DNA of 34,440 bases from a virus (taxonomy: Duplodnaviria > Caudoviricetes). The stretch lies in IMG/VR virus record IMGVR_UViG_3300028030_000038, positions 1 to 34,440 of that record, one strand, 5' to 3'. Within the stretch, counting starts at the first letter, position 1. Each line of letters starts with the position of its first letter. Shown here one piece after another: positions 9,461 to 34,438 of the stretch. A program made the translations under genes and the position numbers. Below the pieces are notes generated by a model. The model had not been told where the DNA came from and did no database searches. It worked only from the letters and a program-made list of their open reading frames with translations.

Positions 9461-9464
9461 TTAA

Positions 9465-9670: not shown

Positions 9671-9727
9671 TATTTAATTTAAACGTGAATGTCGTGATGA
9701 CATACACTATCCCATTGAAGGATTTTT

Positions 9728-11568: not shown

Positions 11569-11869
11569 GGATTTAGTAAAACAGCGTGAGGAAGAAACAA
11601 GGGCGCGCGAAGTAAGACTGGAAAATTTAAACGCCGCATATAAACACGTAATGGATGATCCTCAAGGACGGATGGTTATAATGGATATTATAGGCATGTC
11701 GGGAATGCTGGCAAACTCTGCATCTAATGCAGGATTTAAAACAAATGAAACTTTTTACCACGAGGGTAAAAGGTTTGTAGGCGTTGTACTGACAGGGCGG
11801 ATTAAAACTTTATGCCCTGGCAGTTACATCAAAATGGAGCAAGAAGCTCTGAAACGTAATAGTGAATAA
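11561..11869 (+). CDS. Bbp19-like protein
   Basis: VMDDPQGRMVI...TFYHEGKRFVG; lies between portal and scaffold. Confidence 0.75.
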   Translation: MDKDLVKQREEETRAREVRLENLNAAYKHVMDDPQGRMVIMDIIGMSGMLANSASNAGFKTNETFYHEGKRFVGVVLTGRIKTLCPGSYIKMEQEALKRNSE

Positions 11870-11882
11870 CGGTGTATTAACT

Positions 11883-12578
11883 ATGAAATTTATGAATTAT
11901 GGAAACTGGGGCCGGACTTACCGCGAAGAAAACGGTGGTGATGGTTCTGATTTAGGCGCTGGCGGTGAAGATAATACCGATGGTGGCGACGATGCCACTA
12001 AAACAGATTTAACCCTTGGCGGTGACGACAAAAAGGATGATTTAAAACTTGGCGATGAAAACAAGGATGATGCTGATAAGGATAAAACCGAAGGCGCGCC
12101 AGAAACATACGCTGATTTTGAAGTTCCTGAGGGTGTAGAACTCGACAAGGATTTGATAGGCAAAGCAAGTGAGCTATTCAAAGAGGCGAATATGTCTCAA
12201 GAAACAGCTCAGAAGTTTGTTGATTTGTACGCAGGGGCGCAACAAGAAGCCACTGATGCAATGGTTAAGATGCACACTGATCAAGTAGCAGATTGGGAGA
12301 CTAATCTACGCGCTGATAAAGATATTGGTGGCGACAATCTTAATCAATCATTAGCAAACGCAAAACTTGCTTTACAAACTCATGGTACACCTGAATTAAC
12401 AAAGTATCTCGATGAAACAGGGTTAGGGAAGCACCCTGAAATAATCCGATTGCTGAATAATTTTGGCGCAACTTTACAAGAAGATAACCCGGGTGCAGGA
12501 AAGCCGAGCGGTGGCGATGGTATGACGCCAGAAGAAGAACGCCTGGCAAGAATGTACCCTGAACAACAAAGGAATTAA
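11883..12578 (+). CDS. capsid assembly scaffolding protein
   Basis: Acidic N-terminus, GAPETYADFEVPEG, SQETAQK, LDETGLGKHPE.IR; immediately before the capsid gene. Confidence 0.85.
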   Translation: MKFMNYGNWGRTYREENGGDGSDLGAGGEDNTDGGDDATKTDLTLGGDDKKDDLKLGDENKDDADKDKTEGAPETYADFEVPEGVELDKDLIGKASELFKEANMSQETAQKFVDLYAGAQQEATDAMVKMHTDQVADWETNLRADKDIGGDNLNQSLANAKLALQTHGTPELTKYLDETGLGKHPEIIRLLNNFGATLQEDNPGAGKPSGGDGMTPEEERLARMYPEQQRN

Positions 12579-12581
12579 ATT

Positions 12582-13592
12582 ATGTCTATTTTAGGCGGAA
12601 CATATTTAGATTTAGCGGACGAGTGCAAACGCACGAATCCAGATGGCTCAATGGCAGATGTCATTGAAATGCTTACGGCTCTTAACCCAATCATGGAAGA
12701 TGCTAATGTGATGGAGTGTAACCAGGGGACAACACACTTGCACACTGTTAGAACAGGCTTACCAGAAGTTGCATGGGGTCGTTTGTATAAGGGTATCAAG
12801 CAAGGAAAGGGTTCTTATGCCCAGGTCACAGATACTACGGGGTTTGTTGAGGGGCTATCGACAGTCGATGAACGCTTGCTGAAACTATCGAAAAACCCTG
12901 CTGCATTGCGACTGCAAGAAGCACAGGGATTTTTGGAAGCTATTGCACAGGAAGTACAACGTAAGTTCTTTTATGGTTCTACAGCAAGCGATCCAGATCA
13001 AATCCGTGGTTTGGCAGATAGATACAGTAAGTTATCCGGTGCTAAAAACTCCTCACAGATTGTAGATGCAGGTGGCACAGGAAATGATAATACGTCAGTT
13101 TGGTTTATTACGTGGGGCAACAAGAATACATCATTGTTATATCCGCGTGGGACACAGGCTGGTATTACCCGCGAGGATAAAGGCTCGCAACGTGTTACAG
13201 ATGCAGATGGAAACGCCTTCTACGTGAAAGAGGAGTTATTTACGCAGCATTGTGGCGTATCTGATGAAGATTGGAGATTTACAGCGCGTATCGCCAACAT
13301 AGATGTTTCTGATTTGCGAGACGGGAATGTTCAAATGTATAACTTAATGCGTAAAGCATATTACAAGTTGCACAACCGCCGTCCTGGTGAAGGCAGAAAC
13401 TTCAAGATATACATGAACCGCGAAGTTCTGGAAGCGCTAGACGCAGAAGCCTCTAATGCTACAGCGGGAGACAATGCTGTACGCTTAACCCGTGAAACGG
13501 TAGAGGGTAAGGAAGTATTGACATACAGAGGTATGGAAATCCGAGAGCTTGATACATCAGTTCTTCTCAATACTGAAGCCCGTGTCGTATAA
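12582..13592 (+). CDS. major capsid protein (BPP-1-like, HK97 fold)
   Basis: VIEMLTALNPIMED...ECNQGTTH..TVRTGLP, FFYG, IVDAGGTGNDNTSVW, RIANID, LLNTEARVV. Confidence 0.95.
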   Translation: MSILGGTYLDLADECKRTNPDGSMADVIEMLTALNPIMEDANVMECNQGTTHLHTVRTGLPEVAWGRLYKGIKQGKGSYAQVTDTTGFVEGLSTVDERLLKLSKNPAALRLQEAQGFLEAIAQEVQRKFFYGSTASDPDQIRGLADRYSKLSGAKNSSQIVDAGGTGNDNTSVWFITWGNKNTSLLYPRGTQAGITREDKGSQRVTDADGNAFYVKEELFTQHCGVSDEDWRFTARIANIDVSDLRDGNVQMYNLMRKAYYKLHNRRPGEGRNFKIYMNREVLEALDAEASNATAGDNAVRLTRETVEGKEVLTYRGMEIRELDTSVLLNTEARVV

Positions 13593-18861: not shown

Positions 18862-21218
18862 AAGTACCTCAATACCAGCAAGGTCGTGTAGCACCTGATT
18901 CAGTTAATCAGCAAAAGATTAGCGGTTTTGTTGGTGATGGTGGTTTAGGTCAACTCGGCAATGCCGTATCTGGTGTTGCTAAACAGTTTGAACAGGCACA
19001 ATTTGAAGTAGATCAAACTATTGCACAAGAAAGAATAAATCTTTTAGAGCGTGATTACCTAACAATCAAGCATGATCCTGAACATGGCTATTTTAATAAG
19101 TCTGGCAAAGATGCTTACGATGGGCGCGGTGACACCTTAAAAGCTTTAGAAATTGCCCGTAAAAATCATTTAAAAGGCCTAACCCCTGCACAGCAAAGAA
19201 TGTTTAACCGTGTTGCTGATAAAATGGATATATCTACACGACAACAAGTAGAAGTTCACGCCTCAAGAGGTATGAAAGCATGGCAAGTGGCAACCGAAGA
19301 AGCAACACGCGAAAATGCTCTTGAAAATGGTATGGTTAATTATCAGAATGATAAAGAATTAGCCGTACAACTAGCCACCATGCGAAATTCAGTAGTTAAT
19401 TCAGCAAAGATGCAGGGCATAGGCGCAGAAGCAACCAATGAACGCTTGCAGACAATGACAAGCAAGTTCTATTCAGGTGTTATCAGTCGGGCATTGGAAG
19501 ATGATACAGGGCGCGCTAAAGAACTATTTAAGCGTGTCGAAAAGCTACTGGAGCCAGCGGATAGATCGGTTGTGAAAAAAGCCATAAAAGGCACAATACA
19601 AAAACAATCCGCTATACAAATGGCAGATTCATGGATGGATAAAGGTTATTCTATCTCTAGGGGAATGGAAGAAGCTAGAAAAATCTCTGACCCATACCTA
19701 AGAGAAGCAACAGAGCAGCGCTTTAGGCAGATAAAGGGCATTGAAGAACAAGAAACAAAAAAGCGTGAGATAGAAAGCGCAGATATAGTTTGGGATGCTT
19801 ATTCAAAAGGCGAAATACCAGATAATAAATACATCGAGAATATGTCGGGACGTGCGCGTATTGCTTATAAAAATGCTGTACGGGCAGATAATGAGAGAAA
19901 GCTCAGAGAACAGGAAAAAGCAGAGAAAGAAAAAGAAACAGAAAAATACCAGCTTTATGCAGGCCAGGTCTTTGATGGTGCGTCATGGGATTCAGTCAAG
20001 GATTCAGTCAAAGATTTACCTGTAGAAAAACGGAAAAGCATTAAAGCTATTGCCATAGCCAATACTAATTATAAAAAAGCAATAGATTCAGCTAATGAGA
20101 AACAGGCTAAGGACGCTCAAAAACAATACTTTGAAGTATTAAGAAAAAGTATGCTAACTGGTGGATTAAGGTATGACACCATAGCAAAGATGCCAGAGGC
20201 ACTAAAACGACTTGATAGCACACAGATTGCAAGTTTGATGAAGGTCAGTGCTGCAATGGATAAGCCAAAAGTAGATGCCCAGGAAGCACTACGCAAGAAA
20301 CAGGCCATTTCAAGGCAATGGCAGATAGAGCAGCAGCTTTACCAGATACAAGATTACGACGAAGCAAAACGTGTCTTTATGGAAAATATTGATAAGTTTG
20401 AAACAATCGGTGAGCGCAACCGTGTATTGAATAAATTAAACTCACTTAATAAAGAGCGCGCTAAAGCAGGTCATGTCGATACCGTTATACCGATAATGAA
20501 GCGTATTAAGGCCGTTGCTGGCAAAGACGAAGCAAAGCAAATGGCTTTATGGCAAGAATGGGATGCGTTTCAAATGGCCGTTGCTTCTACTGGTCAAAAA
20601 GTTGACGCGAAACAAACAGACAAATTTTTTCGTGATGCTATTGCCAACAAAGAAAATAGCTCATGGGGTACATCTTTTGAGGAAAGTATTAGTGGATTGG
20701 GGGTGCAGGAATCAAAGAACTTCTTACAGGGAGAAATGGCAAAACAAAGAGATAAATCAAATGCTAACTATGTAAGAGGTTTCCGAGAAAGGTTTATACA
20801 GGACGCTGCGAAAACGTCAGGAATACCAGATTTTGTAATAAAGAAACAAGTAGGTCAGGAGAGCGGATACAACCGCAACGCCAAAAGCCCGACAGGTGTC
20901 AAAGGGCTTCACCAGATTACAACCTCAACAGCCAAAGCCTATGGGTTCGACCCTAAGCGGGTGAGAAGTAATCGCAAAGAAGATGAAGCATACCAATGGA
21001 ACGCCTATGCAACCATTATGCGCGACATGAAAAAGCAAATGGGTGGGAGTGTAAAATGGGCGTTGGTTGCCTATAATGCAGGGCCAGGCAACGCAAAACG
21101 GATGCGAGCAGGAAAAATGCCACTCCCTATTAAGAAAAAAGGCAAGGTAATTAAGACGGCAAAGCAGGTAAAAGCTGAGGCATTAGGATACATTAGACAC
21201 ATTTTAGGCTCTGAATAA
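18858..21218 (+). CDS. internal virion/ejection protein (gp15-like) with a C-terminal lytic transglycosylase
   Basis: MKVPQY start (ATGA overlap); helical body; SLT motifs QESGYNRNAKS, GVKGLHQI, ALVAYNAGPG. Confidence 0.85.
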   Translation: MKVPQYQQGRVAPDSVNQQKISGFVGDGGLGQLGNAVSGVAKQFEQAQFEVDQTIAQERINLLERDYLTIKHDPEHGYFNKSGKDAYDGRGDTLKALEIARKNHLKGLTPAQQRMFNRVADKMDISTRQQVEVHASRGMKAWQVATEEATRENALENGMVNYQNDKELAVQLATMRNSVVNSAKMQGIGAEATNERLQTMTSKFYSGVISRALEDDTGRAKELFKRVEKLLEPADRSVVKKAIKGTIQKQSAIQMADSWMDKGYSISRGMEEARKISDPYLREATEQRFRQIKGIEEQETKKREIESADIVWDAYSKGEIPDNKYIENMSGRARIAYKNAVRADNERKLREQEKAEKEKETEKYQLYAGQVFDGASWDSVKDSVKDLPVEKRKSIKAIAIANTNYKKAIDSANEKQAKDAQKQYFEVLRKSMLTGGLRYDTIAKMPEALKRLDSTQIASLMKVSAAMDKPKVDAQEALRKKQAISRQWQIEQQLYQIQDYDEAKRVFMENIDKFETIGERNRVLNKLNSLNKERAKAGHVDTVIPIMKRIKAVAGKDEAKQMALWQEWDAFQMAVASTGQKVDAKQTDKFFRDAIANKENSSWGTSFEESISGLGVQESKNFLQGEMAKQRDKSNANYVRGFRERFIQDAAKTSGIPDFVIKKQVGQESGYNRNAKSPTGVKGLHQITTSTAKAYGFDPKRVRSNRKEDEAYQWNAYATIMRDMKKQMGGSVKWALVAYNAGPGNAKRMRAGKMPLPIKKKGKVIKTAKQVKAEALGYIRHILGSE

Positions 21219-24200
21219 TGAGTGAATTTGATTTGATACCAGAACCAAAAGAAGTAGATGGGGATTTTAACCTTGGTCTTACTCCTGAAATTACTTTTGA
21301 TGATATTCCAGAGCCAGACGCGATGCAGTCACCGCAAAGCACACCTGATATTCTTGATGAAATACTTTACCAAAGTGCAGATGTAAACCCAAAAGATGCA
21401 GCTGATTTTACTCGCCTGTCAAAAAAATATGACCTACCCGTGCCTGAAGCAAAAAACGCATTGCCAGAACTTCGTAAAAAGGAAAAGGTAGAAAGTTTTA
21501 ATATCGAAGAAATGCGCCAGAACTACCCTGGACTTAAAAAAATGATAGAGGGTAATCCTACTTTAGCATGGGTGTTTAGAGACCATATTGATAACTTGAA
21601 AGGGTTGGAGGACTTGGCTCAGGGTAATAACAAAAATTCAGCAGTAGGCAATATGCTAAGAAATGCTGGTGAGCGTGTAACTACTCTTGCTGGTAATGCA
21701 GTTGGTTTCGTTGATACCGTATCAAACAGCATTGAAGAAACTCTGCAAGAACACAATATGGGGTTGGGTGAAATCACCTATCGGCAGCCCAAAGACTGGA
21801 AGGAAGTATTTACCTTTGGGAATATTGGCTATCGAAGCGGTGCCGAGGCGCAAAAGCTCAAAGATGAAGGCAATTACCCCAAAAGCCTAACAACACAACT
21901 GGCGGATACGATAAAAGATACGAAGTTTGGTTATGTTCCAGATGCCACATGGGAAAGCGTCAAAAAGAAATTTAAAGACGGTGGCGCTTTAAGTGCCGAC
22001 TCATGGGGTGAATTAATCGCTTATTCCTTTGAAACAGGTGGTGCATCACTTGTTGATATGGGCGCGATGGTAGCCAATCTCCCTGTTTATATCGCCTCAC
22101 GTGCTAAAGAAATGGGCGACGTGAGGTCTAAAAATAAAGGGTTAAAAGAAACTACAGGACAAGAAATAGCAGAAGCTACACCGTTCGTTATTGGTTCAGT
22201 TCTACTTGACAAGCTTTCATTGGGCAAAATGCTAGGTGTTGGCAAGGCTGCAAACGAAACAGCCGAAAAAATAGGCAAAGATGCCCTTGAATACACCTAT
22301 AAGAAAGCAGTGAAGGAAGCTGGAAAAGCAACTGGCTTTGAAATGACCACTGAGTTTGTTCAAGAAGGCTTGATTGAATACGTTGGTGAGAAGTTTGGAA
22401 CAAAGGCAAAAATGCGGGCGCAGGAAGCCTTTGACAGGGGTTTAGGTGGGGCAGTTGCAGCAGGGCCATTGTCAGCTTCAATAAGTACGGCTTCAGGTGT
22501 CGTAAACACAAGAGAGGCAGCAAAACAAAAAGCGTTAAAAGTAGAAACTGAAATAGCTCAAAAAACAGTACAGGGTGCTACCGATCAAGACAAGCTCGAT
22601 CAATACACAAGCCTAGCACAATCACTCATAGAGCAAAGCCCCGAATCAGCCAATGAAGTTCTTGAATCAATGCAAGAGCAATACCCTGATATGCCCTCTC
22701 ATGTCACCATCCAGGCGCGAGATTTAAAAGAGGGAATATCAGAGGTAGAAATAACGCCAGAGGTAGAAAAATACTACTCTGAAATATTAGAAGGTATGCC
22801 AACCAATGAAGATATTGAAATACCTTTAACCGAATATGCTCAATACTTTGCGGAAAGTGGTACGATACGCGAGAACGTGCGCCTATCCCCTGATGGTATG
22901 TCAATCCTTGATATAAAGAACGCTGAACCAGCGATGAATGCCATTACTGAGCGCATGATGAAAGAAGCTGACCTGAGTATCAAAGAGCATGAAAAATCAG
23001 TAGAGATTTACAATTCCATTGCCGACCAGCTTTATGACACTGGAAAACTATCAAGCCGTGAAGCTAAACTAGCAGCTAGTCTTTATCCTGCTTATATGGC
23101 CCGCGCTGCCAAAGAGCATGGCATAACCATTGAGGAAGCTTACAACACAATACCTGGTATTAATATCACGGCTAAGGATGAAGTCGCGCCAGAGAAAGCA
23201 TTGGAGCAAGCTAAGACTGAAACAATCGGAGAATTAACAGCAAGGCTGAGTGCAAACTACCCTATAAAGTCATTATCATTACAAGATGGTGATGTGCTTA
23301 CGCTATCAGATATTGAGATTGAAAAAGACAGTAGAAAATCTGGCGAAGGTTCAAAAGTAATACAAGAAATTATTGATTATGCTGATTCAGTTGGAAAACG
23401 TATTGAGCTTACGCCTGATAAAAAAGAAGGTGCTGGAACTACATCTATAAACCGTTTAAAGAAGTTTTATAAATCTCATGGTTTTATTGAGAATAAAGGT
23501 AAAAATAAAGACTTCTCTACAACTCATGGCATGTACAGAGAGCCAGCAAAAGGCTTAAAAAAAGACAGTGCCAACCTACTTGCTCAATCAAAACAGGCAG
23601 AAAGTGGGGGGGTGTCACAAACAGAAACGCCAGAGTTTAAAGCATGGTTTGGTAACTCAGAAGTGGTAGACAAAAAAGGCGAACCATTAATTGTTTATCA
23701 TGGTTCGCCTTCTGAATTTGATGTATTTGACCAAAAAAGAATAGGTGCTTCAGCAACTGCGGAGGGGTACGGATTCTATTTTACTGACAATAAAGATATA
23801 GCCAAAGGTTACACAGGTAAGGATGGTAACTTGATGAAAGTATATCTTTCCATGAAAAAACCAATAGATACTAAGAATAAAAGATTTTCTGTTAGTGAAT
23901 TGAAAAAGATAATCAATACGGCTATTGATAACGAGATAAAAAAGTATGATGGTGAAATAGAGGACTACAAAGACAGCTTTATCTCTAATTATGTTGATAC
24001 CTATGGTATGTCTAGGGATGCGGCTGTTTCAGAAGTTGCTCAAATACTCTATGATAATAATGATAACGCAGTGGATCAAATTTCAGAGCTTGTGAATGTC
24101 TATGGTGATAAGGAAGATGTAGCAAGAGCGGTAACTGAATCAACGGGCTATGACGGTTATCACGTAAAAGACTTTCAAGATGGAGAGGGTGATGTTTATA

Positions 24201-27200
24201 TCGCATGGTTCCCTGAGCAAATAAAATCAGCAACAGACAATTCAGGCGCGTTTGACCCTAACGATCCAAGCATTCTAAAGCAAGAAAACCGCGCCTCAAT
24301 CCAGCGCACAAAGAGCGAATACCTGATTAACTTAGGTAAACAATCAGACCGTAGCTCGTTCCTGCATGAATCAGGACACTTATTTCTTGACCTAGAGAAA
24401 ACCTTTGCAGAAAAGTACGGCTTAACAGATAACCAAAAAGCAATACTCGCATATCTCGAAGTAGATAGTTTTGATGATATTGATTTCTTCAAATACGTTG
24501 ATATGGAAACCCGCCTAAAAGCTGGTGAAGATATTGGCATGAGCAATAAAGAGCTTAAATCAAAGCTTGATACTGCCAGGGCTGCACATGAAAAGTTTGC
24601 TGAATCGTTTGAGGCTTATCTACACACAGGAAAAGCCCCATCGGTAGAGTTACGCAATGCGTTTAGGGCTTTTCGTGATTGGTTAATAGGCGTTTATAAA
24701 TCACTCGTTCCACACGGCATTACGCTATCTAAAGACACCACAGATATGTTTGACAGTTTACTTGCCACTGAAGAGCAGATAGCGGAAATGGAGGCGACCT
24801 ATCACTATGAAGAAGATGTAAAGGCAACGACTAAGGCAAAGGAAATTTTACAGACACAGTTGTTTAAGGAGCTTTACAAGCGCGCCTCTGATGATTGGAA
24901 GTACGAAAAAGCCAAAATAGCCAACGAAATTAAAAAGGACTTAGAGGAAAGCGATTTATACAAAGCTGAGGACTTTATATCTAAAAAAGAGAATCGCCTT
25001 GATGAACAGCAAGTAGGTGAGGCATTAGGTTATAGAGAACCTAAAAGCACGAGAAAGAAAGAACTTGATCCTAGTCAAGATAGTTTACTTGTAGCTATTG
25101 CTAAATTGGGCGGTATTGACCGCGAACACGCAGAACAGCATGGTATTAACCCTGCCTATTGGTCTGGTAAACGTAACCTTTCTAATTCATTAGTTCCCAC
25201 CAAGCCAGTGTTTCGTGCTAAAAATGGATTATTTCTGTCTGATTTAATGGAAAAGTTGGGTGATGAAGGATATGTTGATTATAACAATCAGTCAGAAAAT
25301 GATTTATTGAATATGATCGACGATGAACTACGTGGTGTCGAGCATTATTCTAACAGGTATGAGCCTGATTTATCAGAATACACAGAAGAAGATGCAAACG
25401 CTGAATATCCAAGAAAGCCAAAGCGTTTATACGGCACCACGGCTAAAAATGGGCTTGATATTGATCTTGTTGCAGAACAGTTTGGTTATTCATCTGGTGA
25501 AACTATGCTGCGCGATCTGGCAGAATCCAATCCTATTGATGTTGAGGCATCTAACCAGGCGCAAGAAATAATGCTCGAAAGGCATGGAGACATTTTAAAC
25601 GATGGCTCTCTTGAAGAACTTGCAAAAGAAGAAGCGTTTAGTGAGGAACGAGGTCGCGCATTAATCCGTGAACTTAAAAAGCTAAACAAAAAACAAACGT
25701 CTGGCATAAACCGTGAAATGCTACAGCGTTCAGCAGAAAATATCATTGCTAATACGCCATTAAATAAACTACGCCCTGAGCAGTATCACAGAAAAGAAGT
25801 AAAAGCCTCACAAGAATACCAGCAGTACAAAGCTAATGATGATAAAGATATGATGGTCCAGGCTAAAATGGATCAGCTTATTAACTTCTATTTGTACCGT
25901 GAAGCGCGCAAGGCTAAAGAACAATCAGAGAAATACCGCGATTATTTGCAGAAAGTAAAAACACGCAAGTACAGTGCTGGAACGGTTGATTCTGAATACA
26001 TTAATCATGTTAAAAAGTACGTTGCATTGTTTGAGTTTAGAAAGAATCCCGATAAAACAAATGCACTTACTGAACTGCAAAACTTATCAAATTGGGTGCA
26101 ACAGCAGAACTTAACCAATCCAGAAGGATATAAACCACAATTTTATCATCCACTACTTGCTGAACTCGCCGATCCAGAAGTAGATAGTTCTCAATTAAAA
26201 ATTAAGAGCTATAAGGAAATGACACCAGATGAACTACGGCAGATAAACGAAATGACAAAACACTTGTTATTTATTGGTCGTAAATTATCGAATGACAGCA
26301 AGATGGAGGCTAAGCAGGTTGTTTATGATCTTGAAAAAGCAGCAGAAAAAAACCTGACAAAAAAGAACAATCCAAAACGTAAAAAAGATGAGAGCTGGCG
26401 TGATACGTTTAGTTTTTGGGCGCAAGCCAGCACCATGCTACATATACGAGAACTTGATGGAACATTAAATAAGCGCGCAAAAATGGCAGACGGTGCGTTC
26501 TATAAGAACATCTGGACACCTATCCTTGAATCATCGAATGTTCATGTTGAGCTTGAAGAAGAACTGGACAATGCAATTAAAGAGCAAATACGCCCATACT
26601 TTGATAGGTTGAAAGGAAAGTCAAAAGACTTTGATACTGAGGGCGGAACTCTAACGCTTGATGGTGAGCAAAGGATTATGTTTGCGGTGTATTATGGCTC
26701 TGAAGAATCTCGCCAGGCATTGCTTGAAAATGGAGGTGCCAATAGTGGTTCAATACTAGAGCATCAGGCACAGACTATTCTTGATTCATTAAGCGATGAA
26801 GATATCAAGATTGTTGAAGCAATTTGGAAGATAAACGAATCTCTACGCAGCCGTGTATTCCAAACTGAAAGAGATATTAACGGTATCGCACCTAAAGCGG
26901 TTGAAGCCGTGCCATTTACAGTAAATGGCAAAGAACTGAAAGGTGGATACCAGCGGATCAAATATGAGAGTCATGCTAAAGATGAATTAGGTCGTGATGA
27001 TCCAATGACTGCTGCCATGAATAGTATTGGTCGTGCTGGTATTAGCATGAGCAAAACAGGCTCAACTATTGAGCGTAAAGGCTCTGGCGGACGTACATTA
27101 GCTCTTGAATTTAATAATTTCACTGGATCGTTACAAGAAAACGTACAATTTATTGCTTATGCAAAAACCTCCAGACAGGTACACCAGATATTATCTAATC

Positions 27201-28360
27201 CTGATTTAAAAGCAACACTGCAAGAGCGGTTAGGTGATGATAGATACAGGGCAATGATTGATAGTATCAATGGTACGTTTGTTGGTGAAACCATAGGTAA
27301 TTTTGGAAGAAGTAAAGCGGTAAACTTTTTCAGAAATGCTAGGCAAAAAATGTCAGTCGCCATGCTCATGTATTCGTTCAGAAACATAGTACAGCAGGTT
27401 ATTGGTGGAACTAACCTAATGGTCAATTTAAAAACTGCGGATTATTCAAAAGCCGCCTTTGATTTCATGGGTGATACAAAAGAATGGACTGATTTTGTTG
27501 AATCACGCTCACCCATGATGCGTAACCGGATGAAGTTTACCAATCGTGAAGTAAACGAAATGGTTGGAAGCCTGGCTAATTCTGCTGATAATAGCTTTAT
27601 AGCTGGTGCAAAACGCTACGGATTCGCGCCACAAACGGCGATTGATAAAGCAATGGGTATGCCAGCATGGTTAGCTGCCTATCGTGATGGCATGGCGATG
27701 TATGGCAACGAGGAGCAAGCGATACAACATGCAGACCAGTTGATTGTTGATGCTCTCGGTTCTGGACAGTCAAAAGACCTACCGCCATTATTTACGGGTG
27801 CCGGGCAAGGAGGCAACCCATTAGCTATCGAAGCAATGAAGCAATTTAGCTTTATGGGTTCGTTCTTCAATATGGTGGGCCAGCAGTATTATAGAACCAT
27901 TAAAGGTAATAAACTATCCACAGTTAAAGGAGCAACAACAGCAGCACGTGATATGGCCTGGACACTGGTAATTCCTGCAATACTATCTGCATTAGTAGTA
28001 GATGATATTCCAGATGAAGAAGAATGGTGGAAATGGTCGCTTAGAAAAATAGGTGGATACGGGTTATCATCTATCATTGGGATCAGAGAAATATACTCAT
28101 TATCAGTAGAAGGGTTTGCGCCTAGTTCACCTGCTGCTAACACTTATAAGGCAATGGATAGGATATTCAAATCCACTAACTCAGTGGTTGTCGGTGATAA
28201 AGAGTTTAGCGCTGAGTATATAGCAAAGATGCTAAAAGCAACGGCACCATTTTTGGGGATTCCAGGTCAATATCAAGCGGCGCGAATGATTGAAGGCGCA
28301 GTAGATGATAATCAGGATATATACGGTGCTTTAACAGAAGGAAAGGAACGTAATAAATGA
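21218..28360 (+). CDS. large ejection / polyvalent protein (gp16 position) with GNAT, ART-like and zincin domains
   Basis: 2380 aa. GNAT: SRKSGEGSKVI...RLKKFYKSHGF. ART-PolyVal-like: FKAWFG.S.VVD..GEPLIVYHGS...GFYFT...QIKSATDNSGAFD. Zincin: FLHESGH...HEKFAESFE. Confidence 0.85.
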   Translation: MSEFDLIPEPKEVDGDFNLGLTPEITFDDIPEPDAMQSPQSTPDILDEILYQSADVNPKDAADFTRLSKKYDLPVPEAKNALPELRKKEKVESFNIEEMRQNYPGLKKMIEGNPTLAWVFRDHIDNLKGLEDLAQGNNKNSAVGNMLRNAGERVTTLAGNAVGFVDTVSNSIEETLQEHNMGLGEITYRQPKDWKEVFTFGNIGYRSGAEAQKLKDEGNYPKSLTTQLADTIKDTKFGYVPDATWESVKKKFKDGGALSADSWGELIAYSFETGGASLVDMGAMVANLPVYIASRAKEMGDVRSKNKGLKETTGQEIAEATPFVIGSVLLDKLSLGKMLGVGKAANETAEKIGKDALEYTYKKAVKEAGKATGFEMTTEFVQEGLIEYVGEKFGTKAKMRAQEAFDRGLGGAVAAGPLSASISTASGVVNTREAAKQKALKVETEIAQKTVQGATDQDKLDQYTSLAQSLIEQSPESANEVLESMQEQYPDMPSHVTIQARDLKEGISEVEITPEVEKYYSEILEGMPTNEDIEIPLTEYAQYFAESGTIRENVRLSPDGMSILDIKNAEPAMNAITERMMKEADLSIKEHEKSVEIYNSIADQLYDTGKLSSREAKLAASLYPAYMARAAKEHGITIEEAYNTIPGINITAKDEVAPEKALEQAKTETIGELTARLSANYPIKSLSLQDGDVLTLSDIEIEKDSRKSGEGSKVIQEIIDYADSVGKRIELTPDKKEGAGTTSINRLKKFYKSHGFIENKGKNKDFSTTHGMYREPAKGLKKDSANLLAQSKQAESGGVSQTETPEFKAWFGNSEVVDKKGEPLIVYHGSPSEFDVFDQKRIGASATAEGYGFYFTDNKDIAKGYTGKDGNLMKVYLSMKKPIDTKNKRFSVSELKKIINTAIDNEIKKYDGEIEDYKDSFISNYVDTYGMSRDAAVSEVAQILYDNNDNAVDQISELVNVYGDKEDVARAVTESTGYDGYHVKDFQDGEGDVYIAWFPEQIKSATDNSGAFDPNDPSILKQENRASIQRTKSEYLINLGKQSDRSSFLHESGHLFLDLEKTFAEKYGLTDNQKAILAYLEVDSFDDIDFFKYVDMETRLKAGEDIGMSNKELKSKLDTARAAHEKFAESFEAYLHTGKAPSVELRNAFRAFRDWLIGVYKSLVPHGITLSKDTTDMFDSLLATEEQIAEMEATYHYEEDVKATTKAKEILQTQLFKELYKRASDDWKYEKAKIANEIKKDLEESDLYKAEDFISKKENRLDEQQVGEALGYREPKSTRKKELDPSQDSLLVAIAKLGGIDREHAEQHGINPAYWSGKRNLSNSLVPTKPVFRAKNGLFLSDLMEKLGDEGYVDYNNQSENDLLNMIDDELRGVEHYSNRYEPDLSEYTEEDANAEYPRKPKRLYGTTAKNGLDIDLVAEQFGYSSGETMLRDLAESNPIDVEASNQAQEIMLERHGDILNDGSLEELAKEEAFSEERGRALIRELKKLNKKQTSGINREMLQRSAENIIANTPLNKLRPEQYHRKEVKASQEYQQYKANDDKDMMVQAKMDQLINFYLYREARKAKEQSEKYRDYLQKVKTRKYSAGTVDSEYINHVKKYVALFEFRKNPDKTNALTELQNLSNWVQQQNLTNPEGYKPQFYHPLLAELADPEVDSSQLKIKSYKEMTPDELRQINEMTKHLLFIGRKLSNDSKMEAKQVVYDLEKAAEKNLTKKNNPKRKKDESWRDTFSFWAQASTMLHIRELDGTLNKRAKMADGAFYKNIWTPILESSNVHVELEEELDNAIKEQIRPYFDRLKGKSKDFDTEGGTLTLDGEQRIMFAVYYGSEESRQALLENGGANSGSILEHQAQTILDSLSDEDIKIVEAIWKINESLRSRVFQTERDINGIAPKAVEAVPFTVNGKELKGGYQRIKYESHAKDELGRDDPMTAAMNSIGRAGISMSKTGSTIERKGSGGRTLALEFNNFTGSLQENVQFIAYAKTSRQVHQILSNPDLKATLQERLGDDRYRAMIDSINGTFVGETIGNFGRSKAVNFFRNARQKMSVAMLMYSFRNIVQQVIGGTNLMVNLKTADYSKAAFDFMGDTKEWTDFVESRSPMMRNRMKFTNREVNEMVGSLANSADNSFIAGAKRYGFAPQTAIDKAMGMPAWLAAYRDGMAMYGNEEQAIQHADQLIVDALGSGQSKDLPPLFTGAGQGGNPLAIEAMKQFSFMGSFFNMVGQQYYRTIKGNKLSTVKGATTAARDMAWTLVIPAILSALVVDDIPDEEEWWKWSLRKIGGYGLSSIIGIREIYSLSVEGFAPSSPAANTYKAMDRIFKSTNSVVVGDKEFSAEYIAKMLKATAPFLGIPGQYQAARMIEGAVDDNQDIYGALTEGKERNK

Positions 28361-30573
28361 CAGTATCAACTCAAATAATTGAATCACCGGAATTTGTAGG
28401 TGATGGCGTAATAACAGAATTACCATTTAATTTTTACTATGATGATGAAAAACATGTAAAGATTTATGAAAAGGTCGGGGATAAGTGGATTATTTCTAAT
28501 ATTACCTACATAGTATCGAGAGATAGTTCTATTTCTGAATCAGGAAAGGTCGTTTTGTCATCGCCACTTCCACTTAACACTATTGTTAAAATTGTTCGAG
28601 ATACAGAACGCTTGCAAAAAGAAGAAATAAGGACACATCAAAGGTTTTTTTCTGAGGTTTTAGAAAAAGCATATGATAAAATAGTTTGTGCATTGCAAGA
28701 GATTGATAATTTGTCAATGAAGCTTCCAATCGGGAATAAAGCAAATAATGAATTCCCTTTTCCTTTTAAATCTGGAAGTGTGTTAAGTACAAATGGTAGT
28801 AAATTGATGTGGGCCGAAAATGTAGGTGATCCAAATGATTTAACGAATGTGCAAATAATGAATGCCTACCAAAGCAATGCTAATGTGCTAGGTGCAATAG
28901 ATTTTTTAGATGAAACAGAAATAGCAAGCCATGGTGTGCCAAAATTCAAGACGGCTCGAAGGGTACCAGATGGCGCCCTATACCACTTTAAGAATCCAAC
29001 CACATTCCCTGCTGGCAATAATGGAAAAATACCAAACTTTAACGCAGCTGGGCATACAGGTTTGAAACGGTGGGAGAGAGACAACCCATTTCACATAGAG
29101 CTTGCTAAATACGGCATAAAATCAGATGGTGTATCTGATAATAAAGCTGATATGGATCATATTATAACTCACATGAAAGATATTATCGGTGGGGAGCGTA
29201 TGCAACAAAATGTTGCTTTAGTTGTTCCTGATGGTATTGGAGCTGCTTTTTCGTCTGGAATAACTATTGATGAAAGTAATGTAAGAATTATAGGAGCTAG
29301 TACAGGTGCATCATTGATTTTTGAAGATGCTGATTATGATCTTATTAAGTTTAACGGTGATCCTGCAAAGTCTTTATACGGAAATGGAATACACGATCTT
29401 AATATCTTGTGTCGTGGAAATGCATCTGCTGGTACAGCTCTTACTATTAAAAATGCAATAAACTTTCAATCTAGCAACTTGAATATTTTAGGAGCTTTTA
29501 AAGGAATAGAGTTTGATGAGGTTAGCAGGGCACAATTAGTTAATATTGCGCTAGGCCAGCAAGCTTTTGGAATAAGAACATCAGGAACACCAGATAGGGC
29601 AATGACATTTAAAGGTACTGGTAAAGTGAATGGTACAATCTTAATTAGTAACTTTGATATATCTTATAATATTGGCAATGCTCCTAATTATTCTATTGAT
29701 ATACAAGCATGTGATGGTTTGTGGTTCAATAATGGTCACATTCATGGTGGTGTACTATTTAACCCAGCAGGAAAGGGAACAGATTTATTAGCATCTGTGT
29801 TCTTCGGTAGTACCTACTTTGATGTATCTAATCTTGAAAACATTATATTCCAAGGTGCTAGTAATGCTTACAGAAACTTTTTTTTTGATAATTGTTATGC
29901 TGCTGGTGGGTTCACTGGTATTCATATCAAAGATGCGACAGCAGCAGAAAAGGCAGCCTTTGGTGGTGCACCAATAAACAAAATAAAATGGTCTGGCGGT
30001 AAAATATACGGTCAAGAGATAAGGGGGGTAGATGTACATCGAGAAAGCGTTAGCGATATGGGATTTGTTAATACCACTTTTGATACGAATAACACAACAA
30101 ACAATTCATTAGGCGGTGATATTTATTACAATGGAAAAGGCTTAAAATTGATTGCACCTGAGTTTGTTTCTGGCGGCACTAGTGGTACTGCCTTAAAATT
30201 AGACCCTGTTTCGAGAAATTGTCAGGTGATCGGAGGAAGTACCCTAGATTCCAAGGCAGGAACAAAAGTCAAACGTGGTCATTCATCCAATACTATTAAC
30301 AACCTAAAAGGCTATATTAATAAAATAAGGGGCGCAAATGGGAGTATAGTAGCGGGGGCAACATCAACAACAATAAACAGTGGTATAGATATTGATGCAA
30401 TAGAAGGGTCATCCCATTATAATATACAAATAAGTCCAAGAAGCTCATTGAACGGAGCAGGTAATATATATTCTTCGGGTGTAGTTGACCCAACAACAGG
30501 TAACTTCACTGTAAGAGCAGATGCAGCACCAACGTCAACTGTTTATTTTAATTGGTCGATTGATTTAGAGTGA
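28357..30573 (+). CDS. tailspike / tail fibre with a T7 gp17-like anchor and beta-helix depolymerase-like domain
   Basis: N-terminal F.GDGVITELPFNF...IVRDT...LEKAYDKIVCALQE; YGIKSDGVSDNKA entry motif, then Gly/Asn/Ile-rich beta-helix repeats. Confidence 0.88.
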   Translation: MTVSTQIIESPEFVGDGVITELPFNFYYDDEKHVKIYEKVGDKWIISNITYIVSRDSSISESGKVVLSSPLPLNTIVKIVRDTERLQKEEIRTHQRFFSEVLEKAYDKIVCALQEIDNLSMKLPIGNKANNEFPFPFKSGSVLSTNGSKLMWAENVGDPNDLTNVQIMNAYQSNANVLGAIDFLDETEIASHGVPKFKTARRVPDGALYHFKNPTTFPAGNNGKIPNFNAAGHTGLKRWERDNPFHIELAKYGIKSDGVSDNKADMDHIITHMKDIIGGERMQQNVALVVPDGIGAAFSSGITIDESNVRIIGASTGASLIFEDADYDLIKFNGDPAKSLYGNGIHDLNILCRGNASAGTALTIKNAINFQSSNLNILGAFKGIEFDEVSRAQLVNIALGQQAFGIRTSGTPDRAMTFKGTGKVNGTILISNFDISYNIGNAPNYSIDIQACDGLWFNNGHIHGGVLFNPAGKGTDLLASVFFGSTYFDVSNLENIIFQGASNAYRNFFFDNCYAAGGFTGIHIKDATAAEKAAFGGAPINKIKWSGGKIYGQEIRGVDVHRESVSDMGFVNTTFDTNNTTNNSLGGDIYYNGKGLKLIAPEFVSGGTSGTALKLDPVSRNCQVIGGSTLDSKAGTKVKRGHSSNTINNLKGYINKIRGANGSIVAGATSTTINSGIDIDAIEGSSHYNIQISPRSSLNGAGNIYSSGVVDPTTGNFTVRADAAPTSTVYFNWSIDLE

Positions 30574-30605
30574 CTAGTACAAAACGCAAGGTTCATCATC
30601 AAGTC

Positions 30606-30765
30606 CGTTGTGGTAGCTTAACAACAGTGATAGCGCCAAGCACACTGTATGTGCAATTCGCTACAAAGATGGCAAGGCTGCAAACGAAACAGCCGAAAAA
30701 ATAGGCAAAGATGCCCTCATTCTGAGTATTAGAAAAGTCTGTGGTGAGCCATCTTGTCTTTTTTT
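30606..30765. ncRNA. putative multi-hairpin RNA/terminator after the tailspike gene
   Basis: GTTGT/ACAAC hairpin; TAGCG..GCACA/TGTGC..CGCTA hairpin; AAGATGGC/GCCATCTT stem followed by a T-run. Confidence 0.45.
30670..30717 (+). repeat. exact 48-bp copy of 22240-22287
   Basis: TGGCAAGGCTGCAAACGAAACAGCCGAAAAAATAGGCAAAGATGCCCT is identical at both positions; the flanking bases differ. Confidence 0.95.
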
Positions 30766-30800
30766 AGATTGATAATTCTTTGATTGGAGAATTGCACAAA

Positions 30801-30875
30801 ATGATCTGGTACAAATTCTATATAGGCGATTACACCGCCGACACTAAAACCAGGGCTTCTGCTCTAAGTTTTTAA
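30801..30875 (+). pseudogene. 5' remnant of a DUF1376/YdaU-type replication gene
   Basis: GGAG RBS, then MIWYKFYIGDYTADT (the family's N-terminal signature); stops after 24 codons. Confidence 0.65.
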
Positions 30876-30933
30876 TGGCTTTTTTTGTTTCTGCGATGTC
30901 CTGATTAATTCTAATCGACAAAAGGGTTTAAAA

Positions 30934-31059
30934 ATGAAATATCCAAAAGATATACTTCTTAGTGAAACAGACGAAGAATTCATGAAGCTTGTTTCCAGTG
31001 TTATCATAGAATATCCAGCGTCAAAAGATGCAATAGTCGCTCTGTTAGAAAAAATATAA
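30934..31059 (+). CDS. small hypothetical protein (41 aa, possibly truncated)
   Basis: MKYPKDILLSETDEEFMKLV...LLEKI*; the frame continues KEGYTIEDNKDIKK* past the stop. Confidence 0.4.
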   Translation: MKYPKDILLSETDEEFMKLVSSVIIEYPASKDAIVALLEKI

Positions 31060-31112
31060 AAAGAAGGCTATACGATAGAAGACAACAAGGACATTAAGAA
31101 ATAAACTATTAA

Positions 31113-31141
31113 TTGTTTTTCTATGGAATTTAAATTAAAAT
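31113..31141 (+). promoter_or_regulatory. promoter of the replication operon
   Basis: TTGTTT, 17-bp spacer, TAAAAT, ending just before the structured leader. Confidence 0.45.
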
Positions 31142-31147
31142 ATTAAT

Positions 31148-31202
31148 CGCGGTTAAGGCTTGATCACCTGAATCCACATCCTAGTTCGGAGCCGCGTTTT
31201 TT
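31148..31202 (+). ncRNA. C4/CI-like branched antisense RNA or leader
   Basis: Closing stem CGCGGTT/AGCCGCG, two inner hairpins and a T-run; loop TCCTAGT is complementary to downstream ACTAGG(A) repeats. Confidence 0.55.
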
Positions 31203-31241
31203 ATTTCTTTAATACTAGGTCATAAATACTAGGAGTCAATA

Positions 31242-31352
31242 ATGTCTACTCAAGACAGTAAAAAATCAAAAAGAAAAGGAATACCAAAGAAAGTAAGATT
31301 TGAAGTTCTCAAAAGAGACTCATTCATAATTGATCTTGGAGGTTATACCTAA
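31242..31352 (+). pseudogene. 5' remnant of an HNH endonuclease, coupled to the initiator gene
   Basis: RKGIPKKVRFEVLKRDSF matches HNH N-termini, but the CxxC and HNH core are absent; AGGAG RBS; TAATG overlap. Confidence 0.65.
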
Positions 31353-32230
31353 TGCCAAGAGCAAGAAACCTAAAGTATCAATTCTTTACTAATGATGAAG
31401 TTGCAGAACTTGAGCCAATAGAAAGATTATTTTTTATGGCGCTATGGTGCTTAGCAGACTACAAAGGTGACATAGAATGGAGGGAAAAGAAAATAAAAAT
31501 ATTAACACTTCCTTATGATGATGTTGATGTAAAAAAAATCGCGATTAATCTGGATAAATCTGGACTCGTTCGAATGTACGTTGAAAATGGTAAAATGTAC
31601 TTAAACATAACAAATTTCATTAAGCATCAGAATCCCCATAAAAACGAAAGAGACAAAGGAAGCGATATTCCTTGTTTCAATGAAAAATCTCGCCAACTCA
31701 TTGATTTTAATACACTCACGATTAATCCAGACAAAAACGGAACTACTCAAGATAAAGACGAAACCAATCGTGCTGATTCCTTATCCCTGAATCCTGATTC
31801 CCTTAACCCTATCCCTGAATCCTGTATCCTGAAACCTGATATCCGAGATAAAGAAAAAAAACAAGATAGTTCAAAAAACGAACTATCAGTCGATAAGAAA
31901 AAAACAAAAGTTGATCAAGTATTCGAGTATTGGAAAAAAATATTAAACCATCCGAGAGCTGTGCTTGACGATAAAAGAAAAAGAATAATAACCAAAGCAT
32001 TGAAAAACTATTCAGTAAACGATTGTAAGTCTGCAATAAAGGGATGTTTATTAACACCGCATAACATGGGAAAGAATGACAATCATAAAATATACGATGG
32101 AATACATATAATCTTCAGGGATGCAGATAATATTGAAAGATTTATTTCAAGCAGCAACCCTAACCAACAATACGAAACCCACATAAACGAAACAGAAAAA
32201 CTGGTAGCACGATTAACAGGAGGCGCATAA
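31352..32230 (+). CDS. phage replication initiator (lambda O-like role)
   Basis: MPRARNLK..FFTNDE.AEL...RLFF.ALWCLAD..G, NF.KHQNPH; repeat-coded linker; C-terminal VFEYWK..LNHPRA domain. Confidence 0.85.
   Translation: MPRARNLKYQFFTNDEVAELEPIERLFFMALWCLADYKGDIEWREKKIKILTLPYDDVDVKKIAINLDKSGLVRMYVENGKMYLNITNFIKHQNPHKNERDKGSDIPCFNEKSRQLIDFNTLTINPDKNGTTQDKDETNRADSLSLNPDSLNPIPESCILKPDIRDKEKKQDSSKNELSVDKKKTKVDQVFEYWKKILNHPRAVLDDKRKRIITKALKNYSVNDCKSAIKGCLLTPHNMGKNDNHKIYDGIHIIFRDADNIERFISSSNPNQQYETHINETEKLVARLTGGA
31782..31838 (+). repeat. iteron-like repeats inside the initiator gene (candidate origin)
   Basis: TATCCCTGAATCCTG at 31782 and 31810; CCTG recurs with 7-bp periodicity; an A-rich tract follows. 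Confidence 0.5.
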
Positions 32231-32231
32231 C

Positions 32232-33128
32232 ATGACAAGCAGCGCAGATATAATCAGGTTAATTAAACTAACAGCAGATGAATATGGCAAAAACCTATCA
32301 GATGCCCAATATTCATTATATGTAAAAGTTCTAACACGATTTAGTATAGAGCAACTAAAGAAAGCTATTGATGCTCATCAATTCGACCCTGAAAACGGTC
32401 AATGGATGCCTATGCCAGCGCATCTGATAAAACACATCAACATTAACGATGGCAGACCAACAGCAGATGAAGCATGGTTAAACACGCCAAAATCAGAGCA
32501 TGAATCAATTTCATGGACAGAAGAAGCTAGGCAAGCATTTTTAGAGCTTGAAAGCCAAAATCCTAATGCCACAGATATTGAAATGAAAATGGCGTTTAGA
32601 CCTCTCTATGATAGACTGGTTAGTGAGGCGCGCTCTAATGGCGTTCCTATGAAATGGGTTAATACATACGGCTTTGACTCAGAAGGGCGCGAGGAATGCA
32701 AAAAATTAACGGACAGGCGCAATTATGATTGTGGTCAACTTTTAGAATTGCCTAAACCAAAAGATCACGAGCCATTAGAAGGTATTGCCTATAAGCCTAC
32801 AAAATCAAACGGTGAAAAAATACTTTCTGAGTTGATTGGTGAGCTTGATCACAAAATAGCCGAAGAAAAAACAGCGCTAGTCAAAAAAATAATACTTGAT
32901 GTTGAGCGTGATAATTCGCCATATATTGGTCATTTCAAGCCAACAAAAATAAACATGACCAAAAAACAGGAAGGGATAAATAAAATGCTTGTTGGTATTG
33001 GTGATAATGAAATTCTTGAAATAGAAATTGATGGCGGATTGAATCAATTTTTTGCGAAATGTGGAGCAAGACTGACGCCCAATTGGATAGAAAATAGTTT
33101 TTTATATACTGAAATTAAAGCCAGATAG
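32232..33128 (+). CDS. replication accessory / helicase loader-like protein
   Basis: Follows the initiator; WMPMPAHLI, GRPTADEAW, SISWTEE, MAFR.LY.RLV..AR motifs. Confidence 0.7.
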   Translation: MTSSADIIRLIKLTADEYGKNLSDAQYSLYVKVLTRFSIEQLKKAIDAHQFDPENGQWMPMPAHLIKHININDGRPTADEAWLNTPKSEHESISWTEEARQAFLELESQNPNATDIEMKMAFRPLYDRLVSEARSNGVPMKWVNTYGFDSEGREECKKLTDRRNYDCGQLLELPKPKDHEPLEGIAYKPTKSNGEKILSELIGELDHKIAEEKTALVKKIILDVERDNSPYIGHFKPTKINMTKKQEGINKMLVGIGDNEILEIEIDGGLNQFFAKCGARLTPNWIENSFLYTEIKAR

Positions 33129-33307
33129 AAATAGCTAAAAAGAAAGTGGCTTTCACAGAGTCGACCAAAGGTGGTATCTACACTGGAACAGTCGAAGAAG
33201 TTTGCAAAGTAAAAATAAGAATCAAGGCAGATAGGGAGTTTTCCCATAATTTCAGACGCGGCTTGGCTTGGAGAAGACTAGAACACTTGCTGAAAATACC
33301 AGTGTAA
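33125..33307 (+). CDS. 60-codon open frame without a standard start, ending in attC-like site 1
   Basis: IEIAKKKVAFTESTKGGIYTGTVEEVCKVKIRI...KIPV*; first codon ATA; its TAA is part of GTGTAAC. Confidence 0.35.
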   Translation: MEIAKKKVAFTESTKGGIYTGTVEEVCKVKIRIKADREFSHNFRRGLAWRRLEHLLKIPV

Positions 33308-33388
33308 CCTTTGAGAACAGCGGGCGGCGGTTTGCAGTTTGAGAAAGAAGCCATGACTATGACCGTCCGCTGATTTGAGTTGTTAGTT
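33302..33388 (-). mobile_element. attC-like recombination site 1 (87 bp)
   Basis: GTGTAAC-6nt-GAACAGC(GGGCGG)...(CCGTCC)GCTGaTTT-5nt-GTTAGTT. Confidence 0.75.
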
Positions 33389-33411
33389 TTGAATAAATGA
33401 GAATGTAAATT

Positions 33412-33672
33412 ATGAAATGCGAACAAAGAGATAAAGTAAACAAGCTAAGTTTAGAAGATGTTTCAGGGTTTTTCAGAGAAGAAACGAACTTCAAATATAA
33501 TTATGCTGAGATATATGAAAAGTACATGGCTGGTAACCTGGATATTCCAGAATATATATGGAGGGAAGTCACAAAATATATTGATGCGAAAAAGGGGACG
33601 AAAGAGTTAAATACTGCTATTTGTAATTTGCAGAGGCTCCTGCGCACATCTAGCAGAAAACCAGCCCGGTAG
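33412..33672 (+). CDS. hypothetical protein, cassette A
   Basis: 86-aa ORF that fills the interval between attC-like sites 1 and 2. Confidence 0.7.
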   Translation: MKCEQRDKVNKLSLEDVSGFFREETNFKYNYAEIYEKYMAGNLDIPEYIWREVTKYIDAKKGTKELNTAICNLQRLLRTSSRKPAR

Positions 33673-33676
33673 GGCA

Positions 33677-33808
33677 AACTAACCTCAAGCACAAAGCGAC
33701 AAGCGAACAACAAAACAGAATTTAAATTAACACAAGGAGCGAAAACAAAAGCACTGAATTATGAAACAAGTCCTGCTTAGCGCGGTCGCTTTAGTGCCTT
33801 TGTTAGGT
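33677..33808 (-). mobile_element. attC-like recombination site 2 (132 bp)
   Basis: AACTAAC-6nt-CACAAAG(CGAC)...(GTCG)CTTTaGTG-5nt-GTTAGGT. Confidence 0.8.
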
Positions 33809-33816
33809 TTTGATTT

Positions 33817-34257
33817 ATGCAAGACGCAACAAAAGATGGTGATGCTGTATATTCAACTGACGGCGAACGATTTGAATATACAGAATATGATGACGCTGTT
33901 GAAATGGCGTTTGATTTCGAAGATTTAACAATAGGGTCTACTGCATCAGTATTTAAAGGCAATGCGAAATTAAAAAAAGCATCTGATTATTTGCCGAGTT
34001 TCATAGACGAAATGATTGAATCATCTTACGAGGATTTAGGCGAACATGCTGAATTTTGGCTCTATGAGATGAAGCCAGAAGATGGCAAGGAGCTAGAATC
34101 TATTCTTAAAAATACTGTTGATAAATGGATGGACGAAAAAGGATTATCACCAACATTTTTTGGGGTTGACAATATTCAAGAAATTAAACTTGAATATTGT
34201 GTAACTGAAGACGGAAAAGGAACGGAATACAAGCCGTGCGCTACTAGCACAACCTAA
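33817..34257 (+). CDS. acidic phage hypothetical protein, cassette B
   Basis: 146 aa; starts 8 nt after GTTAGGT and its stop codon is the TAA of ACCTAAC. Confidence 0.85.
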   Translation: MQDATKDGDAVYSTDGERFEYTEYDDAVEMAFDFEDLTIGSTASVFKGNAKLKKASDYLPSFIDEMIESSYEDLGEHAEFWLYEMKPEDGKELESILKNTVDKWMDEKGLSPTFFGVDNIQEIKLEYCVTEDGKGTEYKPCATSTT

Positions 34258-34383
34258 CCTTTTACTTAAAACGACTGCGGGTTTGGACAGATGATTTCTA
34301 TTCCAGGAAGAATTTAATAAAACTTGCTAACTCGGAAAAGCCGCTTGAGTTAGCAAGTCCATGTTTTGAAGCGGTTGTTATAT
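34252..34383 (-). mobile_element. attC-like recombination site 3 (132 bp)
   Basis: ACCTAAC-6nt-CTTAAAA(C)...(G)TTTTgAAG-5nt-GTTATAT; extrahelical G at the canonical position. Confidence 0.8.
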
Positions 34384-34410: not shown

Positions 34411-34438
34411 TTGACAGTTACCGATAACATTGTATTAT
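34411..34438 (+). promoter_or_regulatory. sigma70 promoter with an operator-like palindrome
   Basis: TTGACA (34411-34416), 16-bp spacer, TATTAT (34433-34438); GTTA-CCGA-TAAC palindrome in the spacer. Confidence 0.6.

Follow-up and report, generated by a model that had tools for sequence, protein, structure and literature searches.

The right end of the viral DNA analysed here carries a row of integron-type cassettes, in which the genes are reversed with respect to their attC sites, and which are probably cut out and swapped by an integron integrase absent from the contig. The window (the whole stretch of DNA analysed, 34,440 nt) is an entire viral record, linear and about 79% complete, and three attC-type sites alternate with short genes near its right end (Table 1). 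By the orientation of its genes, the array is not made of canonical cassettes. As far as the contig reaches, it fits the definition of a CALIN (at least two attC on one strand within 3–4 kb), its three sites being spread over 1.1 kb and all lying on minus. To the left, the array is bordered by the left core of site 1, with no partner core nearby upstream, and site 3 is predicted to be the beginning of a third cassette running off the contig.

Table 1. Features of the array and its surroundings in the window, and published phage arrays with the same layout
Feature	Coordinates	Size	Strand	Basis or remark
O-like replication initiator (lambdoid)	31352-32230		+	directly upstream of array; family match
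Following gene, P-like by position	32232-33128		+	between initiator and array
Possible ORF	33146-33307	53 aa	+	stop is TAA of site 1 left core; weak coding signal
attC-type site 1	33302-33388	87 bp	top strand minus	strict geometry scan; covariance model 18.4 bits on minus
Site 1 elements on plus	R' 33302-33308; L' 33315-33321; L'' 33369-33376; R'' 33382-33388			unpaired A 33373
Cassette A, predicted	33308-33682	375 bp		site 1 body and gene A; bounds inferred from polarity
Gene A	33412-33672	86 aa	+	called by codon model; stop 4 nt ahead of site 2 left core
attC-type site 2	33677-33808	132 bp	top strand minus	geometry scan; covariance model 17.2 bits on minus
Site 2 elements on plus	R' 33677-33683; L' 33690-33696; L'' 33789-33796; R'' 33802-33808			unpaired A 33793
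Cassette B	33683-34257	575 bp		site 2 body and gene B; both ends are joints in other samples
Gene B	33817-34257	146 aa	+	PHROG 1672 (function unassigned)
attC-type site 3	34252-34383	132 bp	top strand minus	geometry scan; covariance model 11.8 bits, E 1.1, on minus
Site 3 elements on plus	R' 34252-34258; L' 34265-34271; L'' 34364-34371; R'' 34377-34383			unpaired G 34368
Sigma-70-like promoter match, 11/12	34411-34438		+	just past site 3, towards contig end; consensus only
Published phage CALIN, L254 (NC_029094)	3920-5988		reversed vs annotated genes	
Published phage CALIN, L255 (MW202573)	2069-3738		reversed vs annotated genes	

Both strands of the whole window were scanned under a strict rule for the order R'', 5 nt, an 8-nt L'' whose fourth base is the extra one, a centre, a 7-nt L', 6 nt and R', with at least 6 of 7 box pairs and with TAAC and GTTA cores. 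Exactly three sites were found, against a mean of 0.17 and a maximum of 1 in dinucleotide shuffles (n = 30), and a looser scan gave 12 matches versus 3.8 in shuffles. The original prediction had described three palindromes of 87, 132 and 132 bp sharing one register and read them as attC-type sites; all three lie where it had placed them, and the strict scan bears out the reading. Their L'' and L' boxes pair at 6/7, 7/7 and 7/7 positions in sites 1, 2 and 3, with spacers of 5 and 6 nt, and all three have inverted R''/R' cores with the conserved AAC/GTT, although site 1 and site 2 both have a left core that is one position off RYYYAAC. Their lengths fall inside the range given for attC, 57–141 bp with a variable centre (PMC5027507). 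A covariance model trained on 28 bacterial sites, each co-oriented with its gene, ranks the same three sites top in the window at their exact coordinates, all on the minus strand, with E-values of 0.033, 0.062 and 1.1 for sites 1, 2 and 3 and with the next match at 10.9 bits; this model is our own, not that of IntegronFinder, and is not fully independent, its training sites having been chosen by our geometric rule from loci found with the site-1 pattern (1 of the 28 carries the hexamer of that search pattern). Sites of Qi et al. (2023) that are proven to recombine score 16.4–32.7 bits with it.

The cores also match across each gene, 33382–33388 with 33677–33683 and 33802–33808 with 34252–34258, both at 7/7 and the sole two to do so among nine left/right comparisons, while the two cores of one and the same site pair at 4/7, 6/7 and 5/7 in sites 1, 2 and 3; exact complementarity around each gene and the poorer match between the ends of a single site had both been anticipated. 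In other arrays, adjacent cores match at 7/7 in 43 of 63 viral gaps and 29 of 49 bacterial gaps, and within-site cores in 23 of 148 viral and 23 of 141 bacterial sites. Since random core pairs reach 7/7 in about 9–12% of cases, the two-of-two match across genes would be expected by chance at about 1%. Core complementarity is symmetric, however, and hence polarity is not readable from the core match alone.

The position of the first unpaired base sets which strand is recombined, and the cut falls in the AAC of R' (PMC2727003, PMC5027507). Both the strict scan and the covariance model place the top strand of all three sites on minus, and genes A and B are on plus. The register first proposed, xxxTAAC, 6 nt, 7-nt box and then 8-nt box, 5 nt, GTTAxxx, is correct as written, but it is that of an attC bottom strand, so that the sites point against the genes; the bottom-strand oligonucleotide of aadA7 in the supplement of Qi et al. 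(PMC9892861) has the same 6, 7 ... 8, 5 register. From established attC biology, IntI recombines the strand that has the unpaired base on its 3' arm, which here would be the plus (coding) strand. Each site begins on the left with R', where the cut is made, so that the joint is expected at the left AA|C rather than the right G|TT, and under the reversed polarity the unit consists of a hairpin plus the gene downstream of it, cut at the left TAA|C. Cassette A, thus delimited, is flanked by a 7/7 core match, and no exchange of it was seen.

For cassette B, such exchange was found in natural samples. Parts of the region are present in five public runs (X1–X5), of which X1, possibly the source of the window, was excluded as support. 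A 274-nt contig from X2 is unrelated to the window until it reaches the TAAC at 33680; from there to 33907 it matches site 2 and the start of gene B with 2 differences, and it runs through the right GTT core of site 2 without a break. In X3, which belongs to a different study, a 466-nt contig matches gene B over 33874–34258 apart from 1 difference and a 3-nt gap. This match ends on the C of the site 3 left core (34258), beyond which comes another arm whose spacing is attC-like. Both joints fall at the TAAC core and have no longer homology on the far side. Of the breakpoints originally proposed, AA|C or G|TT, the left AA|C is therefore the one found at both ends of cassette B, and the right G|TT is the one left intact in X2. 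Cassette B is about 99% identical between samples and its neighbours differ, which argues for recent movement and agrees with the earlier proposal that these genes moved as cassettes. The joint contigs are one each, short and of depth 5–6, and, being unplaced in any genome, they are not necessarily from phage. One left arm like that of site 3 is common to X1, X4 and X5, where it follows three different upstream sequences, and bodies like that of site 1 occur with other flanks in two X3 contigs. Neither a circle nor a clean excision joint was seen in assembled contigs. Motif scans of viral contigs for sites 2 and 3 gave 46 matches, none of which proved on reading to be in an attC context, and BLAST of the array against the loci collected in this analysis gave no match.

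The same joints bear on the possibility that the array is a captured piece of an ordinary host integron with normal polarity, each gene being followed by its own attC and joined at the right G|TT. The layout on plus does look textbook, the stop codon of gene B being the TAA within the left core of site 3 and the cores cross-matching; moreover, Vibrio phages that have captured host arrays are on record (PMC9892861), and the array of phage TJE1 (L249) has normal polarity, with a methyltransferase gene that runs into its second site. However, unpaired base and spacers put the top strand on minus in 3/3 sites, in agreement with the model, and normal polarity would bind gene B to site 3, which the X2 and X3 joints contradict: gene B neither shares the attC top strand nor precedes an attC of its own, but travels with site 2, which lies upstream of it. 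Inverting an entire normal cassette would flip the gene along with its site, and so could not yield the reversed layout. The family of gene B is, furthermore, a phage family: 418 relatives were found at E ≤ 0.001, look-alike clusters are mostly viral, and members in four cultured phages have no attC match next to the gene, lying in two of them within a few bases of their neighbours. We regard capture as highly improbable, the least likely of the readings weighed.

The cassettes with reversed genes are formed by sites that depart from the best-known substrates. An efficient IntI1 substrate would typically have G as the first unpaired base of its bottom strand; at this position sites 1 and 2 have A and site 3 has G, compared with G in 92, C in 73, A in 20 and T in 3 of 188 bacterial sites, and with A in 4 of 175 viral sites. 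A typical attC has a second unpaired base following a 6-bp stem (PMC5027507), and such a second bulge is present in none of the three sites here, versus 127 of 188 bacterial and 101 of 175 viral sites in the same test. The lowest-energy fold is not the attC shape in site 1 (−10.0 free versus −5.1 forced) or site 3 (−16.7 versus −10.8), while the plus strand of site 2, the best of the three, folds near it (−12.6 forced versus −14.0 free); when the attC shape is imposed on both strands, plus comes out as the more stable one in just 1/3 sites. Judged from their sequence, the three sites are thus predicted to be imperfect IntI1 substrates, because two have A as first unpaired base, none has a second bulge, and sites 1 and 3 favour other folds. 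Site 3 also contains a strong inner hairpin (34321–34358) with a CTAAC/GTTAG pair of its own, which competes with the attC fold and gives a model match of 10.9 bits on plus at 34325–34355.

Sites of this kind might be relics that IntI no longer recombines, swaps being made instead by a phage recombinase through homology-based or illegitimate recombination at short conserved linkers. Such an origin would suit the non-ideal unpaired bases, the poor predicted folding of sites 1 and 3, the low model scores, the record without IntI, and two deletions that have no core endpoint (33762–33847 in X4 and 33756–33789 in X5). It is nevertheless unlikely, as both joints of cassette B lie exactly at the TAAC core with no longer homology beyond, the 7/7 core matches are intact, and cassette B remains about 99% identical amid differing neighbours.

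No integron integrase (TIGR02249) was found in the record, as the original prediction had noted for the window, and no attI was recognised in it. The contig ends 57 nt beyond site 3, on the side of the array where intI would lie. In run X1, a 203-nt contig extends 108 nt beyond this end. In those last 57 nt, a 5/7 core match at about 34422–34428 was considered as attI and rejected as within chance. Among viral records with reversed sites, 2 of 43 hold IntI above cut-off, and none of the 8 near-complete ones does. In one of them, G007 (L264, G007:C1), a viral record with baseplate genes, 13 reversed sites (13 model matches, minus) lie at 153–7131 among genes that are mostly on plus and include two for DNA methyltransferases. 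Its intI (6154–7131) stands at the 5' end of the attC top strand, pointing away from it and co-directional with the cassette genes; G007 therefore has normal intI/attC geometry with the genes reversed, and the place equivalent to its intI lies past the right end of our window.

Some further observations concern these integrase-bearing records. A candidate attI core in G007 at about 6095–6101 is 7/7 complementary to the end of the last attC and precedes the start of intI by about 50 nt, from which it follows that intI may be read from a phage transcript through the array. The same record contains a duplicated unit (494–865 and 3633–4006, 86% identical), which begins at a site's left core and consists of a hairpin and the gene downstream. 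Another viral record, L263 (G038:C1), with portal and tail-fibre genes and a phage-type integrase at 7799–9211 (region 7799–12911), has an integron integrase at 11904–12911 on the 3' side of the attC top strand, unlike G007.

That 41 of the 43 viral records have no IntI, together with a polarity unlike that of bacterial integrons, could also mean that a different phage-encoded recombinase acts on the hairpins, or that they are RNA or regulatory hairpins merely resembling attC. Rfam returned no match for the region, and none of the three sites resembles a terminator. IntI-linked bacterial arrays are marked by the same pattern, reversed sites of PH101 work with IntI1, and G007 pairs a reversed array with a true IntI, all of which render this reading very unlikely. 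In the loci surveyed with the site-1 pattern, 9 tyrosine recombinases were found by motif, all in bacterial loci and all matching TIGR02249 (8 above cut-off and 1 cut by the locus end). All nine being integron integrases, the pattern evidently picks real integron sites.

The survey itself, carried out with one strand-symmetric pattern derived from site 1, yielded 115 viral and 124 bacterial loci, the bacterial genome scan covering 4 of 64 parts. For the count of orientations, genes were called by a codon model and sites by the strict scan, in loci of at least 1.5 kb (80 viral and 79 bacterial), which left out 35 of the 115 viral and 45 of the 124 bacterial loci. Among 144 viral sites, 120 were reversed, 12 normal, 11 mixed and 1 uncalled; among 141 bacterial sites, 9 were reversed, 110 normal, 17 mixed and 5 uncalled. 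Counted per locus, 59 viral loci were reversed, 10 normal and 11 tied, compared with 3, 64 and 12 bacterial ones. Fisher's test on viral versus bacterial site orientation gives p = 2e-45, a value that overstates the contrast because sites are non-independent and some loci are near-duplicates; the contrast is large despite this. A cruder ORF-rule count agrees, with 56 reversed, 22 normal and 31 unclear on the viral side (n = 109), and 9, 101 and 24 on the bacterial side (n = 134). In an all-against-all comparison of the other viral loci, 5 breakpoints ended at R', 3 at R'', 1 within a site and 74 elsewhere.

Phage attC clusters without an integrase, with IntI1 activity, are already published: Qi et al. 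(2023) reported 17 CALINs in 10,705 phage genomes and recombination by IntI1 for 5 of 6 sites (PMC9892861). The present array resembles them in having several attC on one strand between short phage genes with no integrase seen, and differs in that cassette B occurs here with other neighbours, no natural cassette exchange being reported in the text of that paper. That text is silent on reversed genes and calls the layout of PH101 typical. On re-reading, however, four model matches in PH101 are opposite to the annotated genes, including both assayed sites, and the PH101 sites recombine with IntI1 (PMC9892861). MW202573 has the reversed layout with five model matches, and P12002L has one weak match, likewise reversed. 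A literature search, outside whose reach most subscription journals lay, found no paper on reversed genes as a trait of phage arrays.

With bacterial integron attC, the sites have in common the order R''-5-L''(8)-centre-L'(7)-6-R', the AAC/GTT cores, the length and the cross-complementary cores around each gene. Bacterial cassettes, both class 1 and sedentary chromosomal, differ in that the gene here is on the bottom strand, downstream of its own hairpin. The array also differs from bacterial integrons in that no intI, attI or Pc was recognised in the 79%-complete record, in having A unpaired in two sites, and in its lack of the 6-bp second bulge. Integrons with an inverted integrase, described in Treponema and others (PMC4889954), likewise depart from textbook orientation; there, intI is turned relative to attC, whereas here the genes are turned and the intI of G007 is normal.

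The phage setting of the array is that of a lambdoid early region. An O-like initiator lies upstream and the opposite contig end begins with nin-type nucleases and lysozyme, which places the array in the early (nin-like) region, the rest of which is missing. The virion module is that of a podovirus of the BPP-1/epsilon15 kind, a label drawn from family matches. The nearest cultured phages infect Vibrio and Ralstonia, with the capsid about 60% and the initiator up to 47% identical, and the host is not fixed thereby. In 8 stretches of these phages (220 kb) no array was found, with no model match at E ≤ 1; one stretch (L246) has 2 lone 6/7 rule matches. No family was found for gene A, neither gene has a Pfam, PDB or fold match, and gene B in particular has no fold match in the PDB. 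Close relatives of the P-like gene and gene B were absent from viral contigs, and a metagenome scan gave only the window's own contig. The gene B family was found in none of the 43 viral records with reversed sites, in a search that had no positive control. The possible ORF ahead of gene A was not called by the codon model and has no family match. The window contains 16 promoter-like sites compared with 12.7 by chance. The spacer of the promoter match past site 3 holds a GTTA/TAAC inverted repeat (34417–34428), which could be an operator. In run X1, depth is 27.9 past site 3 versus 16.3 before it, as if the flank were common to two genotypes.

Taken with the attC biology cited above, these features suggest how integron-type cassettes with reversed genes might work in a phage. 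The plus strand would fold once it becomes single-stranded in replication, and IntI would join two hairpins at AA|C and free a hairpin with its gene as a circle, which may then enter another array or an attI-like site. The genes could be read by run-through from the rightward early transcript of the phage, in which case no Pc is needed. The integrase may be that of the host, or a phage copy in the missing part beyond 34383, the side on which intI is expected from normal intI/attC geometry. If replication proceeds rightward from the O-like gene, as we assume, the recombining strand would be the lagging-strand template, favouring folding and excision; this placement is the opposite of that in large chromosomal integrons (PMC8946536). 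If a reversed cassette were to enter a host attI through the usual strand, it would face Pc and hence stay silent, and phage and host pools may be kept apart in this way.

It is possible, and we put it forward tentatively, that phages maintain a cassette pool of their own on integron machinery: early genes would gain an attC on the mirror side, be transcribed by the phage and swapped by IntI, and stay silent in host integrons, so that the two pools share an enzyme and are set apart by polarity, phages being one birthplace of cassettes. Correct orientation of the gene relative to attC is taken as the basis of integron function (PMC5027507), and a phage-wide reversal would amount to a second use of the same recombination chemistry, namely modular exchange of accessory genes by site-specific recombination. 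Such exchange would account for part of early-region mosaicism. As the gene B family is plain and tightly packed elsewhere and forms a cassette here, the gain of an attC should be traceable in related genomes, which makes this family a handle on how cassettes originate; cassette B, both joints of which have been seen in nature, is a ready substrate for direct test.

Several other observations were made along the window. Between the tail gene and the initiator (30570–31352), only short ORFs are present, with no recognisable repressor, Cro or integrase; one of these ORFs (31242–31352) is possibly a broken HNH start. In run X1, two contigs meet at about 30670–30717, suggesting a repeat or a genome junction. 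An 852-aa ORF (4319–6877) without Pfam or PHROG match lies between the lysis and terminase genes. In a 2380-aa virion protein (21218–28360), an ADP-ribosyltransferase domain of the polyvalent-protein type (PF18760) is recognised, together with a weak match to LPD22; the protein likely enters the cell with the DNA to act on the host.
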